The notes under the pieces: generated by a model | Databases searched by the model: none | Told to the model about the DNA's origin: nothing | What the model saw: only the letters and a program-made list of their open reading frames with translations | Origin: Candidatus Thorarchaeota archaeon | GTDB taxonomy: Archaea > Asgardarchaeota > Heimdallarchaeia > Hodarchaeales > Hodarchaeaceae | DNA: 32,000 nt | Assembly (NCBI GenBank): GCA_048882505.1 | Contig: JBHLRO010000001.1 | Location: 240,001 to 272,000 of the forward strand | Direction of reading: 5' to 3' | Part shown: piece by piece, positions 25,590 to 30,348 of the stretch | Position numbering within the stretch: the stretch's first letter is position 1 | Layout of the letters: every line of letters begins with the position of its first letter | Position numbers and translations under genes: made by a program

Positions 25590-27668
25590 GTGTTAAATGA
25601 GGTAACTCCAATCTTGGATAATAGGAATAAAATTGGATGGTTCCAAAGAAAGGATCTAAAACCTCCCAAAGACCTTAAATCAGTATTTAAATCACTCAGA
25701 AATTATTTGGCCGGAAACCTAAAAGGCACAACTAGAGATGAAAGATTAGCAGAACAGTTGATTTTCCTTCTCTTCTGTAAAATACAGGATGAGATACAGA
25801 CAAAACAAGAAGAACCAGTTTTATTCCAATTACATCATCCTTCCAATATTACACTTGATGAAAGGGTGAAAAAACTCTTTGTTCACCTTAAAGATGCATT
25901 TCCAATCGCATTCGATGAGAAAGATAAAATTAATATCGATTCTTATAGTTTAATGCATTTAACCAAGGTATTGCAGCCCTTCAGCATTAGTGAGGCCAGT
26001 AGAGACTCAATCGGGGATGCCTTTGAGATTTTTTTGGGGCCTTCTCTACGAGGAAACAAAGGTCAGTTCTTCACCCCCAAGAATGTTGTAAAAACAATGG
26101 TTTCGATTTTAGACCCCAAACCAGGAGAATCAGTCATAGATCCCGCCTGTGGAACGGGAGGTTTCTTAATAGAAGTTATCAAACATCTTAAGGACGAAAA
26201 TAACAAAAAACCTACATCCTTACCTCCCATCGCCAATATTTACGGAATTGACAAAGATAGGTTCTTGGCAAAGATAGCCCGGCTTTATTTGATGATCCTT
26301 GGGGCGGATTACAATCCCATTTTCTGTGAAAACTCCTTAACAGATCCAAAAAGTTGGGGGCTCGAATTATCATCGAAAATAAAGCAAAACTCGTTTGATA
26401 TCGTAATAACAAATCCCCCTTTCGGATCGAAAATTTCAATAAAAAACCAGGAAATTCTCAATTCTTTTGAATTAGGTCATAGGTGGCAAAAATCTAAGGA
26501 TAAGGAATCTGGGACAATTAGATGGACGAAAACAGCATCGTTGCTCGATTCGCGACCTCCTCAAATACTTTTCATAGAATTAGCGCTTTCCTTACTCAAA
26601 GATGACGGCCGGTTGGGGATTGTTCTTCCGGATGGGATTTTTGGGAATCCAACTGATAGATACATTTTGGAATATCTACAGACACATTCTAAAATCCTAG
26701 GAATAATTAGTTGTTCTGCATTAACTTTTCTTCCCTTTACACACACCAAAACTAGTTTATTATTCCTCCAGAAAAAGAAAAAAGCCGAACCATACGATTT
26801 ATTTATGGCAATCGCGGATAACGTTGGCCATGACAAGAATGGCAAACCCTCATATAAATTGGATGCCTTTGGAAACGTTTTAGAAGATAATAATGGATTT
26901 TCAATTCTTAATGACGATTTCCCTGAAATTATAAGGCGGTTCAACTTGTTTACCAAAGTTAAAAGCCTTAACCATTCTCATCTTGGTTTCTCTTTTCCCT
27001 CTACCTCTCTCCGAAATAATATATTGATTCCCGAATATTATAATCCAGAAATCGATATAGAGTTATCAGAATTGGAGCGAACAGGTGATTACAAGCTAAT
27101 CACAATTGAAAGATTAGTGCTGGAAGGAATAATCGAAATACGGCGTGGTCATGAAATCGGATCAAAATTCTACGGAACCGGAGACATTCCCTTTGTGAGA
27201 ACCTCTGATCTGATAAATTGGGAAATCAATATTGATCCCAAGAAACAGGTATCAGAGGAGATTTATATGCAATACAAACAAAAACAGGACATTCGGGAAG
27301 GAGACATATTGTTCATTAGTGATGGAACCTTCCTTATTGGCAAATCTGCTATGATTACCAAAGAAGATACCAAAATAATAATTCAAAGCCATTTGAAAAA
27401 AATTCGGGCTATTAAGAGGAACTTTTTGGACGAGTACATTTTACTCTGGGCCTTGAACACCGAAATAGTGCAGAAACAGGTTAAATCAAAGACCTTTGTC
27501 CAATCAACAATATCTACCTTGGGAGAACGGATGTTTGAGCTGATACTGCCGATACCAAAGGCTCCCCAACGCCGTGACGAACTCTCACGTGAAATTAAGA
27601 CCATTATCGAACAGAAAATGAAACTCAGAGCTCGAATCCGGGCATCTCTGAATATTTCTAAGGTTTAA
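25590..27668 (+). CDS. N-6 adenine DNA methyltransferase (HsdM/type IIG-like, gamma class) fused to one HsdS-like target-recognition domain
   Basis: 'GQFFTP..VV', 'DPACGTGGFL' (SAM binding) and 'NPPF' (catalytic). The C-terminal 'IPFVRTSD...DILF...G..IGK.A..' region is TRD-like. Confidence 0.9.
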   Translation: MLNEVTPILDNRNKIGWFQRKDLKPPKDLKSVFKSLRNYLAGNLKGTTRDERLAEQLIFLLFCKIQDEIQTKQEEPVLFQLHHPSNITLDERVKKLFVHLKDAFPIAFDEKDKINIDSYSLMHLTKVLQPFSISEASRDSIGDAFEIFLGPSLRGNKGQFFTPKNVVKTMVSILDPKPGESVIDPACGTGGFLIEVIKHLKDENNKKPTSLPPIANIYGIDKDRFLAKIARLYLMILGADYNPIFCENSLTDPKSWGLELSSKIKQNSFDIVITNPPFGSKISIKNQEILNSFELGHRWQKSKDKESGTIRWTKTASLLDSRPPQILFIELALSLLKDDGRLGIVLPDGIFGNPTDRYILEYLQTHSKILGIISCSALTFLPFTHTKTSLLFLQKKKKAEPYDLFMAIADNVGHDKNGKPSYKLDAFGNVLEDNNGFSILNDDFPEIIRRFNLFTKVKSLNHSHLGFSFPSTSLRNNILIPEYYNPEIDIELSELERTGDYKLITIERLVLEGIIEIRRGHEIGSKFYGTGDIPFVRTSDLINWEINIDPKKQVSEEIYMQYKQKQDIREGDILFISDGTFLIGKSAMITKEDTKIIIQSHLKKIRAIKRNFLDEYILLWALNTEIVQKQVKSKTFVQSTISTLGERMFELILPIPKAPQRRDELSREIKTIIEQKMKLRARIRASLNISKV

Positions 27669-27715: not shown

Positions 27716-28339
27716 TCAATATTCGATTTTATCCACTGCTGTTTTTAAAAGAGCATAGCCTGAAGTATGTAGAGCATGGCCATGTGCGACTATTACTTTA
27801 GAAAATTGGTAATCAAGTAATTTTTTCATTGAAATACGGTGCAGCTTTGGATTTTCATTATATTGATCTGGCATAGGAGCTATTTCCCCTTCATTGGTCA
27901 TAAAACTATCTCCTGCTACTAACAACCCTGTCTCTTGATCTAATAAAGCAATATGGCCTTTCGTGTGTCCTGGAGTGTGGATAACAAGCAATCCTTGGTA
28001 AACCTGTTGAGTCTTTAGTTGATGATCTATTTTCACTCCCGTATCCTGTTTTATTCGCTTGGTTTCCAATTCATGACAAGCTATCTGAGCCATGGTTATT
28101 TCTTTCATTCTCTCTAATCCGCCCGTATGATCTCGATGATAATGTGTGATAATTATATTTGCTATGTCTTTTTCATGATAACCACAGGCCTTTATTTCAG
28201 AAATTAGATTTTTCGCAGTTGGGTCCGTTGCAGTATCAACAAGAACTAGACGAGAGGACGTTAATAGTGCGGTATGGCTCGTTGTTTCTAGTACAAAGGC
28301 ATCTGATCCAATTTTTATCAGCTTCAAACCAACTCCCAT
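27716..28339 (-). CDS. MBL-fold metallo-hydrolase
   Basis: 'THYHRDHTGG' (HxHxDH), 'TPGHTKGH', 'GD' and 'AHG'. Confidence 0.9.
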   Translation of the reverse strand: MGVGLKLIKIGSDAFVLETTSHTALLTSSRLVLVDTATDPTAKNLISEIKACGYHEKDIANIIITHYHRDHTGGLERMKEITMAQIACHELETKRIKQDTGVKIDHQLKTQQVYQGLLVIHTPGHTKGHIALLDQETGLLVAGDSFMTNEGEIAPMPDQYNENPKLHRISMKKLLDYQFSKVIVAHGHALHTSGYALLKTAVDKIEY

Positions 28340-28421
28340 TTTATGTGGACTGGGATATTTCCAAGAAATAAACTTCTATGGGCAGATTACTTCCTTACTT
28401 ATAGGTTTTGCCTATCACCTT

Positions 28422-28435
28422 CAATAGCGCTATTG
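28422..28435. promoter_or_regulatory. Perfect 14-bp palindrome upstream of the MBL gene
   Basis: CAATAGCGCTATTG, next to an ATAGG-TTTTG-CCTAT hairpin (28401-28415). Confidence 0.25.
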
Positions 28436-28468
28436 TTTATTGTGAAAAGAGTCTTAGCCAAATCAATT

Positions 28469-29284
28469 TTAGCGATCAAGGTACCTCACTAATCCTTCGT
28501 CACGTTGGGACGAAGGTTCTAAGTTTCTTAAGTGAATTCGATAATCCTTGACATTCTTTAGCTTACGCAGGCAGATTTCTCGATATTTGGAATCTATTTC
28601 AATTCCAACATAATCCCTTGCCATAAGTTTAGCGACAACGGCCACAGTTCCAACCCCCATAAACGGATCAAAGACAAGATCTCCTTTTTTTGATGCCATT
28701 GCTATAATGCGTTCGATCATTGCCATAGGAAGCTGACATGGATGGGGATCTCGATCCCTACGATGTCTGATTCGATGCAAATCAAACCATAGATCAGAAA
28801 TCTCGTTGGGTTGAACCGCTAAATCATTCTCTCTCTTCCGAATACACGAATTTCGTAAACAAAAAGTATCCTTTGCCTTGGTTAGAATCCTATTGAAGGT
28901 ATAATCAAGTGACTTCGTGTAATAGAGTAAACCATAATGTGCTGGCATGATTTTCCCACGAGGAACAGATAATGCATCCCAAACAATCCAACGCTGCCTG
29001 TACATTAATTGATCAAGGAAGATCGCATAGTACATACACCATTTCGGTAAATTAACCACAAAAATAGAACCCGTTGGCTTCAATATGCGATACAATTGGT
29101 ATAGCCATCTGTTACACCACTTAACATAATCATCTTCGTGTAAATCATCACGATAAGATGTGTACGCTTTATTTAAATTGTAGGGAGGGTCTGTAATGAC
29201 CAAATCTACGCTGTCAGATTTAAATTTGGGCAAAAGTTCTATACAGTCGTCCTGATATATTCGATTACGCTCTATAGCGAGCAT
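28469..29284 (-). CDS. Site-specific DNA methyltransferase, N6_N4 beta class (intact)
   Basis: N-terminal 'DLVITDPPYN' (motif IV), 'HPCQLP...ERII..AS..GDLVFDPFMGVGT' (motif I) and 'YVGIEID'. The ATG at 29284 follows an AGGTGAT RBS. Confidence 0.92.
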   Translation of the reverse strand: MLAIERNRIYQDDCIELLPKFKSDSVDLVITDPPYNLNKAYTSYRDDLHEDDYVKWCNRWLYQLYRILKPTGSIFVVNLPKWCMYYAIFLDQLMYRQRWIVWDALSVPRGKIMPAHYGLLYYTKSLDYTFNRILTKAKDTFCLRNSCIRKRENDLAVQPNEISDLWFDLHRIRHRRDRDPHPCQLPMAMIERIIAMASKKGDLVFDPFMGVGTVAVVAKLMARDYVGIEIDSKYREICLRKLKNVKDYRIHLRNLEPSSQRDEGLVRYLDR

Positions 29285-30170
29285 GAAGATCACCTGGGAA
29301 TGGAGTCAGTAATAGTTTAGAATCGGTATCGCAAGATAAATTTATCAGACGAGCTAGAAGCTGATCAGAAAACACCCCTGATGGGCTAGAAATATACTTC
29401 CATACGTCTGAAATTATAGCCCCGTTATGGTGAATGAGGTGTTTCTTGCCTCCATAATCTTTGATATTTCGGCCACAATATTCACACCGAAATGTTTCGC
29501 GTATACGGTTAATACGAAATCCTTTGTCAGTTTTGAGATAAAAAAGGGTTCCATTGGTCACTGAAGACAGACGTTTTAATACATCATCGTCATGATCAGG
29601 AGGGAGGATTTCGGCTTTACTTACCAACCAATACTTAAAATGCATAAACTTGTCCAGATATACTCCATAATATGGAAGTAGTTCTGGAGTAGAATGGATA
29701 AGGTAATTGCCCCTCTCATTTAAGATTCTGGTTACCTCTTTGATCCATTCTTTATGTGATTCAATCACATAGGATCGATCCGGGTTAGTTTTATACGGCT
29801 TATTTCTGATTCTTGGATCATAGGGAAAGAATGAAATACACGTATCGATAGAGTGTGATGGAAGCTTTTTAAGTTTAGGTAGGTTATTGCAAATCACAAT
29901 TGATTCTGGGATGATATTTTCAATGACAGAATCTGGTTGAATACGTTTTTTAAGAAATTCCTGTTTTACTGATTCATAATCTTGAATATTATATACGTTC
30001 AATACTTCGGATAATTTAAAATATCCTGTTTCTTGCAGAGGATTTGAAAGTTTATTCCCATCTCTATCATACTTGTTAATTAGGCCCGCTGCAATTTTGA
30101 GACGAATGTTTTCCTCTGTTCGATTGGTGATTCGAAACACGTCGGTCAATTTCAGAAATGTTTCTTTCAT
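29265..30170 (-). CDS. HTH (MerR/excisionase-like)-fused degenerate beta-class DNA methyltransferase
   Basis: N-terminal 'FLKLTDVFRIT......IR..I..G.I...YF..SEV' HTH. 'KKLPSHSIDTCISFFPY' aligns to 'SIDLI.TDPPY', followed by 'WIKEV.RIL...G', 'CEYCG', 'ISDVW' and a truncated 'LLTPFPG'. The ATG at 30170 follows a GAGGTGG RBS. Confidence 0.7.
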   Translation of the reverse strand: MKETFLKLTDVFRITNRTEENIRLKIAAGLINKYDRDGNKLSNPLQETGYFKLSEVLNVYNIQDYESVKQEFLKKRIQPDSVIENIIPESIVICNNLPKLKKLPSHSIDTCISFFPYDPRIRNKPYKTNPDRSYVIESHKEWIKEVTRILNERGNYLIHSTPELLPYYGVYLDKFMHFKYWLVSKAEILPPDHDDDVLKRLSSVTNGTLFYLKTDKGFRINRIRETFRCEYCGRNIKDYGGKKHLIHHNGAIISDVWKYISSPSGVFSDQLLARLINLSCDTDSKLLLTPFPGDLHARYRA

Positions 30171-30348
30171 GGAACCACCTCTACAATACTCATTTGGGAG
30201 AGGCATTTAACACAGTAAAAATCTCTCTTCTTATGATCCAAAGAATTAAACTGTGGCTTTAATAGATTGGCGGAAGATAATCTTGGGGGATTTGGATATA
30301 GAAATTCTTAATTGTTGATTTAAGAATCAATTTTTAGAGGTTAATTGG

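Follow-up and report, generated by a model that had tools for sequence, protein, structure and literature searches.

A two-gene Asgard module that probably encodes a pseudo-dimeric beta-class DNA methyltransferase with one intact and one degenerate subunit

The genome of an archaeon catalogued as Candidatus Thorarchaeota (placed by GTDB in the Asgardarchaeota, order Hodarchaeales, family Hodarchaeaceae) contains, within the 32,000-nucleotide stretch analysed here (the window: positions 240,001 to 272,000 of contig JBHLRO010000001.1, assembly GCA_048882505.1), two minus-strand genes that fill window positions 28469-30170. The upstream gene (29265-30170) encodes P0001, a protein of 301 residues that its open reading frame, a weak match to Pfam family PF01555, an AlphaFold2 (AF2) model and Foldseek comparisons describe as a winged helix followed by a truncated, degenerate beta-class methyltransferase-like domain; the downstream gene (28469-29284) encodes P0002, an intact beta-class amino-methyltransferase of 271 residues. 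We regard P0002 as the catalytic subunit and P0001 as its non-catalytic partner, and think it probable that the two genes specify the halves of one pseudo-dimeric beta-class DNA amino-methyltransferase that is obligate, orphan and translationally coupled. An earlier note on this DNA had proposed an active/dead beta-class heterodimer here, perhaps a single-chain pseudo-dimer that has undergone fission, and the conserved pairing, the existence of fused forms, a predicted complex, purifying selection and the absence of any insertion or deletion (indel) all agree with that proposal.

P0002 matches PF01555 at 2e-44 (152.5 bits, cut-off 26.7), with motif IV preceding motif I: DPPY occupies residues 32-35 (29180-29191, minus strand, as are all features of the pair), and the loop that binds S-adenosylmethionine (SAM) reads FDPFMGVG at residues 205-212 (28649-28672). 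The earlier note had likewise described an intact DPPY/DPFMG enzyme. D32, P33 and P34 of the first motif and D206, G210 and G212 of the second are invariant in 62 relatives, with Y35 nearly so. The protein also carries HPCQLP and a reduced form (C..R..C..R) of the loop, resembling a target recognition domain (TRD), that is described below for P0001. Its closest solved relatives by sequence are M.MboIIA (1.6e-27) and M.BceJIV. Since the pair has no other SAM pocket or catalytic motif, P0002 would be the subunit that transfers the methyl group, most likely yielding N6-methyladenine (m6A) or N4-methylcytosine (m4C) in a short DNA site; judged from the motif itself, DPPY favours m6A, with m4C also compatible. 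PADLOC labels both P0001 and P0002 merely as Type II methylases.

In P0001 the corresponding elements are degenerate. Its motif IV position reads SFFPY (residues 113-117), in which FFPY (residues 114-117; 29820-29831) aligns with the DPPY of P0002, and none of 71 relatives has [DNS]PP[YFW] in this column. Motif I is a relic, LLLTPFPGD (residues 286-294; 29289-29315), which in sequence and alignment corresponds to the beta-1 strand plus the first glycine of the SAM loop; it ends the fold, with the C-terminus only seven residues beyond. Between the two lies a CxxC...KDYGGKKH...SDVW block (residues 229-257; 29400-29486), composed of CEYCG at 229-233 and KDYGGKKH...ISDVW at 237-257, which is a TRD-like loop and possibly a zinc site. 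No other block is as well conserved across the dead domains: C229, C232, D238, G240, G241, K242, G250, D255 and W257 are invariant in the 71. The FFPY, CxxCG, KDYGGKKH...ISDVW and LTPFPG features that the earlier note had picked out were thus all located, and they are not chance peculiarities of one protein, since all 71 aligned relatives have a degenerate motif IV, are truncated at the same point and carry the CxxC...D[WY]GGK block.

The structural model gives this degenerate protein a beta-class fold. With the 71-sequence alignment, AF2 modelled P0001 at a predicted local distance difference test (pLDDT) score of 83.9 (a model from an 11-sequence alignment was poor, at 58.8), and after the N-terminal domain the core adopts the methylase fold, with its last strand at residues 285-288. 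The top Foldseek matches are M.MboIIA (1G60, 9e-11), CcrM and M.BceJIV, and the model also resembles M1.HpyAVI. Although the single sequence falls below the PF01555 threshold (E 5.6e-4, 20.4 bits against the cut-off of 26.7, profile positions 9-181 of 221), a profile of the dead-partner family matches M.MboIIA at 9e-13 and BLASTP aligns P0001 with P0002 at 9e-12; shared fold and significant similarity make P0001 a homologue of the beta-class amino-methyltransferases. It is not an enzyme of PF01555 in the ordinary sense: motif IV is non-canonical and motifs I-III (the FxGxG loop, beta-2 and beta-3) are absent. With motif IV degenerate and beta-2 and beta-3 missing together with these motifs, P0001 would be unable to bind SAM in the usual way.

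The central finding is that relatives exist in which the two halves are one chain. We searched the dead-partner profile against 1.84 billion representative proteins and 185,579 species genomes, and about 48 of the loci fetched, from many bacterial phyla and a few archaea, encode fused proteins of ~560-620 residues (typically ~590) with the dead domain N-terminal and the active domain C-terminal. The N-terminal half of these proteins lacks motif IV, carries the same CxxC...D[WY]GGK block and ends just past beta-1; the C-terminal half is closely related to P0002. A C-terminal HNH_repeat tail is also present in many of them, and the majority of the family consists of fused chains without any helix-turn-helix (HTH). 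In a joint tree the dead domains form one clade (support of 100 in the Shimodaira-Hasegawa-like approximate likelihood-ratio test, SH-aLRT) and the active domains another (99), and since each clade contains both split and fused forms, the partnership arose once. P0001 and P0002 belong to this pseudo-dimeric family by clade placement, by the CxxC...D[WY]GGK block and by the DPPY of the active partner.

Conserved pairing, the other thing that the earlier note had suggested looking for alongside fused homologues, is equally consistent within the Asgard archaea. An intact DPPY methylase lies directly downstream in 16/16 related Asgard loci with enough DNA. Homologues of P0001 that include its N-terminal domain occur only in Asgard metagenome-assembled genomes (MAGs), labelled Heimdall-, Hod-, Hermod-, Odin- or Promethearchaeota, and among the 400 genomes surveyed from the phylum the module was confined to one GTDB genus and family, where it was present in 12 of the genus's 22 species. 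Its chromosomal flanks vary: one subclade has the pair flanked by a geranylgeranyl reductase and a gamma-class methylase; in the subclade of the window it occupies another site, and the genome of the window retains the reductase-gamma-methylase locus with no pair in it. With such differing flanks the pair behaves as an accessory two-gene module.

A multimer prediction, which the earlier note had also suggested, gave a positive answer. P0002 together with residues 85-301 of P0001 attained a complex score of 0.88, against 0.00 for the best of three controls (a mark of this kind was attained by 58/80 solved complexes and 2/110 mismatched pairs), and three runs agreed in at least 92% of contacts, with a partner pLDDT of at least 82. 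The predicted interface sets P0002 residues 80-101 against P0001 residues 162-185 and, because these are homologous segments, is pseudo-twofold; it also has the CxxC/GGKK loop of P0001 facing the reduced C..R..C..R loop of P0002. By the wide alignment, conservation in the dead domain is higher at the interface than outside it (0.54 vs 0.41, p 0.0016). The prediction lends support, and only support, to binding between P0001 and P0002.

Together these results suggest how such a module might work. P0001 retains the helix-strand segment by which beta-class enzymes dimerise and has a full, highly conserved TRD-like loop; it would stand in for the second monomer of a homodimer and supply part of the DNA-recognition surface, with the winged helix perhaps adding DNA affinity or repressing its own operon. 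The earlier note had suggested target recognition, HTH-guided targeting and autoregulation as possible roles of the dead subunit. The genes would be co-transcribed and translationally coupled through an overlap of 11-38 nucleotides and a Shine-Dalgarno-like motif inside the upstream gene, an arrangement that would favour equal amounts of the two subunits. A more ambitious version of the proposal, which we find doubtful, would make the dead subunit a detachable specificity or targeting subunit, with the TRD-like loop alone setting the recognition sequence and the winged helix steering methylation to particular loci: an independently evolved prokaryotic counterpart of METTL3-METTL14 and MTA1-MTA9, serving epigenetic regulation rather than defence.

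Several observations weigh against a pseudo-dimer. In the narrow Asgard alignment, the interface residues are no more conserved than the rest. The high complex score may reflect likeness to known structures, since homodimers of relatives (M.MboIIA, M.RsrI, CcrM and M.BceJIV) have been solved, and the score would also be compatible with P0002 homodimerising and working alone. No conserved operator for the winged helix was found: short imperfect inverted repeats precede the operon in the window and five relatives, and because no repeat is common to more than two closely related loci no operator can be claimed. Finally, about half of the genus's species lack the pair, so the module is dispensable.

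A rival reading is that P0002 is a self-sufficient homodimer and P0001 mainly a transcription factor, analogous to the controller proteins of restriction-modification (R-M) systems, with its dead domain serving only its own dimerisation or sensing. The N-terminal domain is relevant here. Residues 1-80 (29931-30170) are predicted to fold as a MerR/excisionase-like winged helix-turn-helix: the AF2 model folds residues 1-77 into a small helical domain that bears a beta wing, at pLDDT ~90 (helices 8-15, 19-27, 53-59 and 65-77, strand 50-52), and an ESM Atlas model of P0001 resembles MerR/HTH_17/AlpA over residues 1-62 at template-modelling (TM) scores of 0.5-0.6. The HTH claimed in the earlier note therefore stands as a predicted fold and fails as a Pfam detection: the N-terminus has no Pfam match even at E 5, and its first 90 residues found no match by sequence in Pfam, NCBIfam or the Atlas. 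The domain also exists as a stand-alone metagenomic protein (P0051, 87 residues, E 1e-23 to the family profile), which argues that it is modular.

A primarily regulatory P0001 would fit the finding that, within the Asgard family, the winged helix is the best-conserved part of the protein (0.78 vs 0.70), as well as the homodimeric state of the solved relatives of P0002 and a bacterial relative whose dead domain bears an XRE-type HTH, the fold of R-M controllers, in an operon accompanied by a DpnII-family nuclease. We nevertheless consider it unlikely. Most family members are fused and without an HTH, so the dead domain must be kept for a reason beyond DNA-binding regulation; across the family the conserved parts of the dead domain are the interface residues and the TRD-like loop; and in the predicted complex the dead domain packs against the dimer face of P0002.

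The junction between the two genes bears on whether a single chain might also be made. The genes overlap by 20 nucleotides (29265-29284), the TAA stop of P0001 lying at 29265-29267 and the ATG of P0002 at 29282-29284 in the +1 frame, and an AGGTGAT sequence formed by the last P0001 codons (29289-29295) stands 4 nucleotides ahead of that ATG; both the overlap and this ribosome-binding site had been noticed earlier and are where they were said to be. (At its other end, the P0001 gene has an alternative ATG start at 30206, and homologues favour 30170.) The same +1 offset is found in 16/16 Asgard loci, with an overlap of 11-38 nucleotides in nearly all of them, and in most the G-E/D codons of the relic spell GGAG or GGTG 7-12 nucleotides before the ATG, so that the last conserved codons of the dead gene also provide the active gene with its ribosome-binding site. 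This constant offset, together with the existence of fused homologues in the same order, would be compatible with a programmed +1 ribosomal frameshift that additionally yields a fused chain. That, however, is very unlikely: overlapping genes cannot easily shift frame, so a constant offset is expected from descent alone; the Shine-Dalgarno-like motif and ATG are well spaced in most loci, as fits ordinary re-initiation; no conserved slippery motif was seen; and the split relatives L044, L066 and L095 use a +2 offset with a 4-nucleotide, ATGA-type overlap.

The split itself is genuine. No indel was found across 28400-30300, including the region near 29265-29300 for which the earlier note had asked for a check, in contigs of four public runs from three studies (contigs rather than raw reads, and one of the four runs is possibly the source of the window's DNA). 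Contigs from two diverged relatives also span the junction without a gap, over 816 nucleotides with 13 substitutions and over 994 nucleotides with 95 substitutions. Compared with the 89%-identical orthologue in L009, the ratio of nonsynonymous to synonymous substitution rates (dN/dS) is 0.155 for the P0001 gene and 0.168 for the P0002 gene: both genes are under purifying selection, about equally strong. The weak Pfam match, lost motif IV and truncated C-terminus of P0001 might have suggested a pseudogene of recent decay, or a single gene split by a sequencing frameshift. Such a reading is refuted by the dN/dS of 0.155, by the indel-free contigs of three studies, by an anatomy that is shared with relatives at 39-89% identity and with 71 relatives in all (none of them canonical at motif IV), and by the fact that joining the frames would give no canonical single methylase, since the upstream part already spans motif IV to motif I.

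For the pseudo-dimer that we favour, the neighbourhoods of the wider family suggest an origin. In 39 of 50 bacterial and archaeal loci (the fused forms plus a few split or cut ones), the methyltransferase gene adjoins a gene of ~340 codons for a BanI-family restriction endonuclease (PF24447, E 1e-65 to 1e-147), nearly always directly upstream and on the same strand, which implies that the family normally supplies the cognate methylase of a Type IIP system. BanI cuts GGYRCC, and the classical BanI methylase is a C5 enzyme; a literature search on GGYRCC methylation returned nothing relevant. PF24447 was not detected in the genome of the window, which is 94.55% complete, nor in four other pair-bearing Asgard genomes, two of them single-contig chromosomes (a cyanobacterial genome, as positive control, gave 1.9e-146). 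With all five tested Asgard genomes lacking it, the Asgard module is an orphan methylase. It would have derived from the methylase of BanI-type Type II R-M systems, in which the halves form a single chain, and become an accessory orphan methylase after loss of the nuclease. The fused form was absent from plasmid and phage collections, where no record covered at least 80% of the query, and a mobile-element origin for it was set aside on that ground.

As to whether the Asgard pair arose by fission of a fused chain or preserves a state before fusion, two quick trees disagree on the position of the Asgard active domains: one puts them beside a few fused forms with weak support, the other outside the main fused clade (SH-aLRT 96). 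A group of single-domain active methyltransferases of ~300-340 residues (L021-L038, for example L022 of Helicobacter brantae), most with DPPF plus the CxxC...DYGGKK block, is placed between the dead and active clades in the joint tree, and enzymes of this type may resemble the dead domain's ancestor. Further bacterial split forms are L044, L066 and L093. In L092 (3146-5847), from a Thermodesulfovibrionales MAG, a 336-residue protein with an XRE-type HTH on the dead domain is encoded by a gene that overlaps one for an active methyltransferase of 254 residues, with a convergent gene for a DpnII-family endonuclease; this is a second, independent fusion of an HTH to the dead half. In a second Asgard family, 3 of 5 genomes encode fused methyltransferases of 587-592 residues with no adjacent nuclease (L090, 4572-6335; L091, 3335-5113); these fall inside the main fused clade in the tree, not beside the split Asgard forms.

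Around the pair, the Pfam scan of the window found no adjoining nuclease, in line with the earlier note: the neighbours are a metallo-beta-lactamase-fold gene, a sugar-phosphate isomerase/AP-endonuclease-2 TIM barrel and a gamma-class methyltransferase. The first of these (207 residues; 27716-28339, minus strand) lies between the pair and the gamma-class gene, a layout shared with the close relative L009. The gamma-class enzyme (692 residues; 25590-27668, plus strand) is an N6-adenine methyltransferase with an NPPF motif and a long C-terminal specificity-like region, encoded convergently to the pair. Its match to the MADS MAD2 model has an E-value of 1e-93, yet the score of 314 bits stays below the 720-bit cut-off. 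A different gamma-class methyltransferase, of 631-650 residues, to which the 692-residue protein is not orthologous, follows the pair in 11/17 Asgard loci. As a candidate third component it was rejected in favour of synteny, given that the window's own genome has a gene of this type without the pair, beside UvrA and geranylgeranyl reductase on contig C19. Downstream of this conserved gene, several genomes of the genus encode one or two proteins of ~345 residues, paralogous to each other (L003, 8647-10810; L006, 8639-10807; L096, 9306-10319), also found on contig C19 and matching nothing in Pfam or PADLOC. One Hodarchaeales contig (L005, 3016-4401, minus strand) has a gene for a 461-residue RRXRR plus HNH protein divergently upstream of the pair, which is not in the other loci.

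Among known systems, the closest counterparts are the fused methylases of BanI systems (~590 residues; for example those of Aliterella atlantica, L080, Komarekiella, L071, and Gracilibacillus kekensis, L060), which fall in the same clades, have the same N-to-C order and share the loss of motif IV, the truncation past beta-1 and the CxxC...D[WY]GGK block. The Asgard form differs from them in being two overlapping genes, in its N-terminal winged helix, and in having neither an HNH_repeat tail nor, in the tested genomes, a BanI-type nuclease. We found no published description of the fused dead-plus-active family in the literature searched, so that it seems to represent an undescribed methylase architecture tied to BanI-type restriction enzymes. 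The split orphan form with its winged helix is a new version of this architecture: in an archaeon closely related to eukaryotes, an R-M methylase has been co-opted as an orphan that brings its own DNA-binding head.

M.MboIIA (1G60), CcrM (6PBD), M.BceJIV (8URK) and EcoP15I Mod2 have the same fold as P0001 and P0002; they are the closest solved relatives by sequence and structure, and the predicted interface uses the equivalent segments of both chains. In CcrM and EcoP15I, one monomer catalyses and the other contacts DNA (PMC7544214, PMC6787082, PMC4490356). Dimerisation has been proposed to be obligatory for beta-class amino-methyltransferases, one subunit carrying out catalysis while its partner holds the DNA (PMC7544214). 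In the homodimeric enzymes the subunits are identical and each is potentially catalytic, whereas here the division of labour would be genetically fixed, P0001 having lost motif IV and the SAM-binding half.

A fixed division of this kind is found in METTL3-METTL14 and in the ciliate MTA1-MTA9, where a catalytic subunit is combined with a paralogue that has an eroded motif IV and is needed for substrate binding (PMC7544214). P0002 and P0001 would follow the same active/dead logic, and the ciliate complex includes extra DNA-binding proteins, to which the winged helix of P0001 is comparable. The earlier note's comparison with METTL3-METTL14 holds as an analogy but not as kinship: MT-A70 is absent from the Pfam hits at E <=0.1, MT-A70 structures are distant and weaker Foldseek matches (1e-6 vs 1e-10), and METTL14 retains a complete fold whereas P0001 is without beta-2 and beta-3. 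The pair has an origin independent of the MT-A70 pairs, out of a bacterial-type R-M methylase (PF01555), and is not the ancestor of the eukaryotic m6A writers. To our knowledge, fixed active/dead pairs have until now been described only in eukaryotes, and our literature search found no description of a prokaryotic dead/active beta-class pair. The reach of the Asgard form is limited, in that the split winged-helix form occurs in a single genus, is an accessory module and did not give rise to the eukaryotic writers; the family as a whole presents the same active/dead outcome in prokaryotes, in natural fused and split forms, and so offers a simple natural system for asking what the non-catalytic half contributes.

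The N-terminal domain invites a last comparison. SsoII/EcoRII-type methyltransferases carry N-terminal HTH regulators, and in these enzymes, as with R-M controller proteins, an HTH is tied to a component of a modification enzyme, as in L092 and as predicted for P0001. Unlike in the SsoII/EcoRII type, the predicted HTH of P0001 would be MerR/excisionase-like and sits on the non-catalytic subunit of an orphan system.

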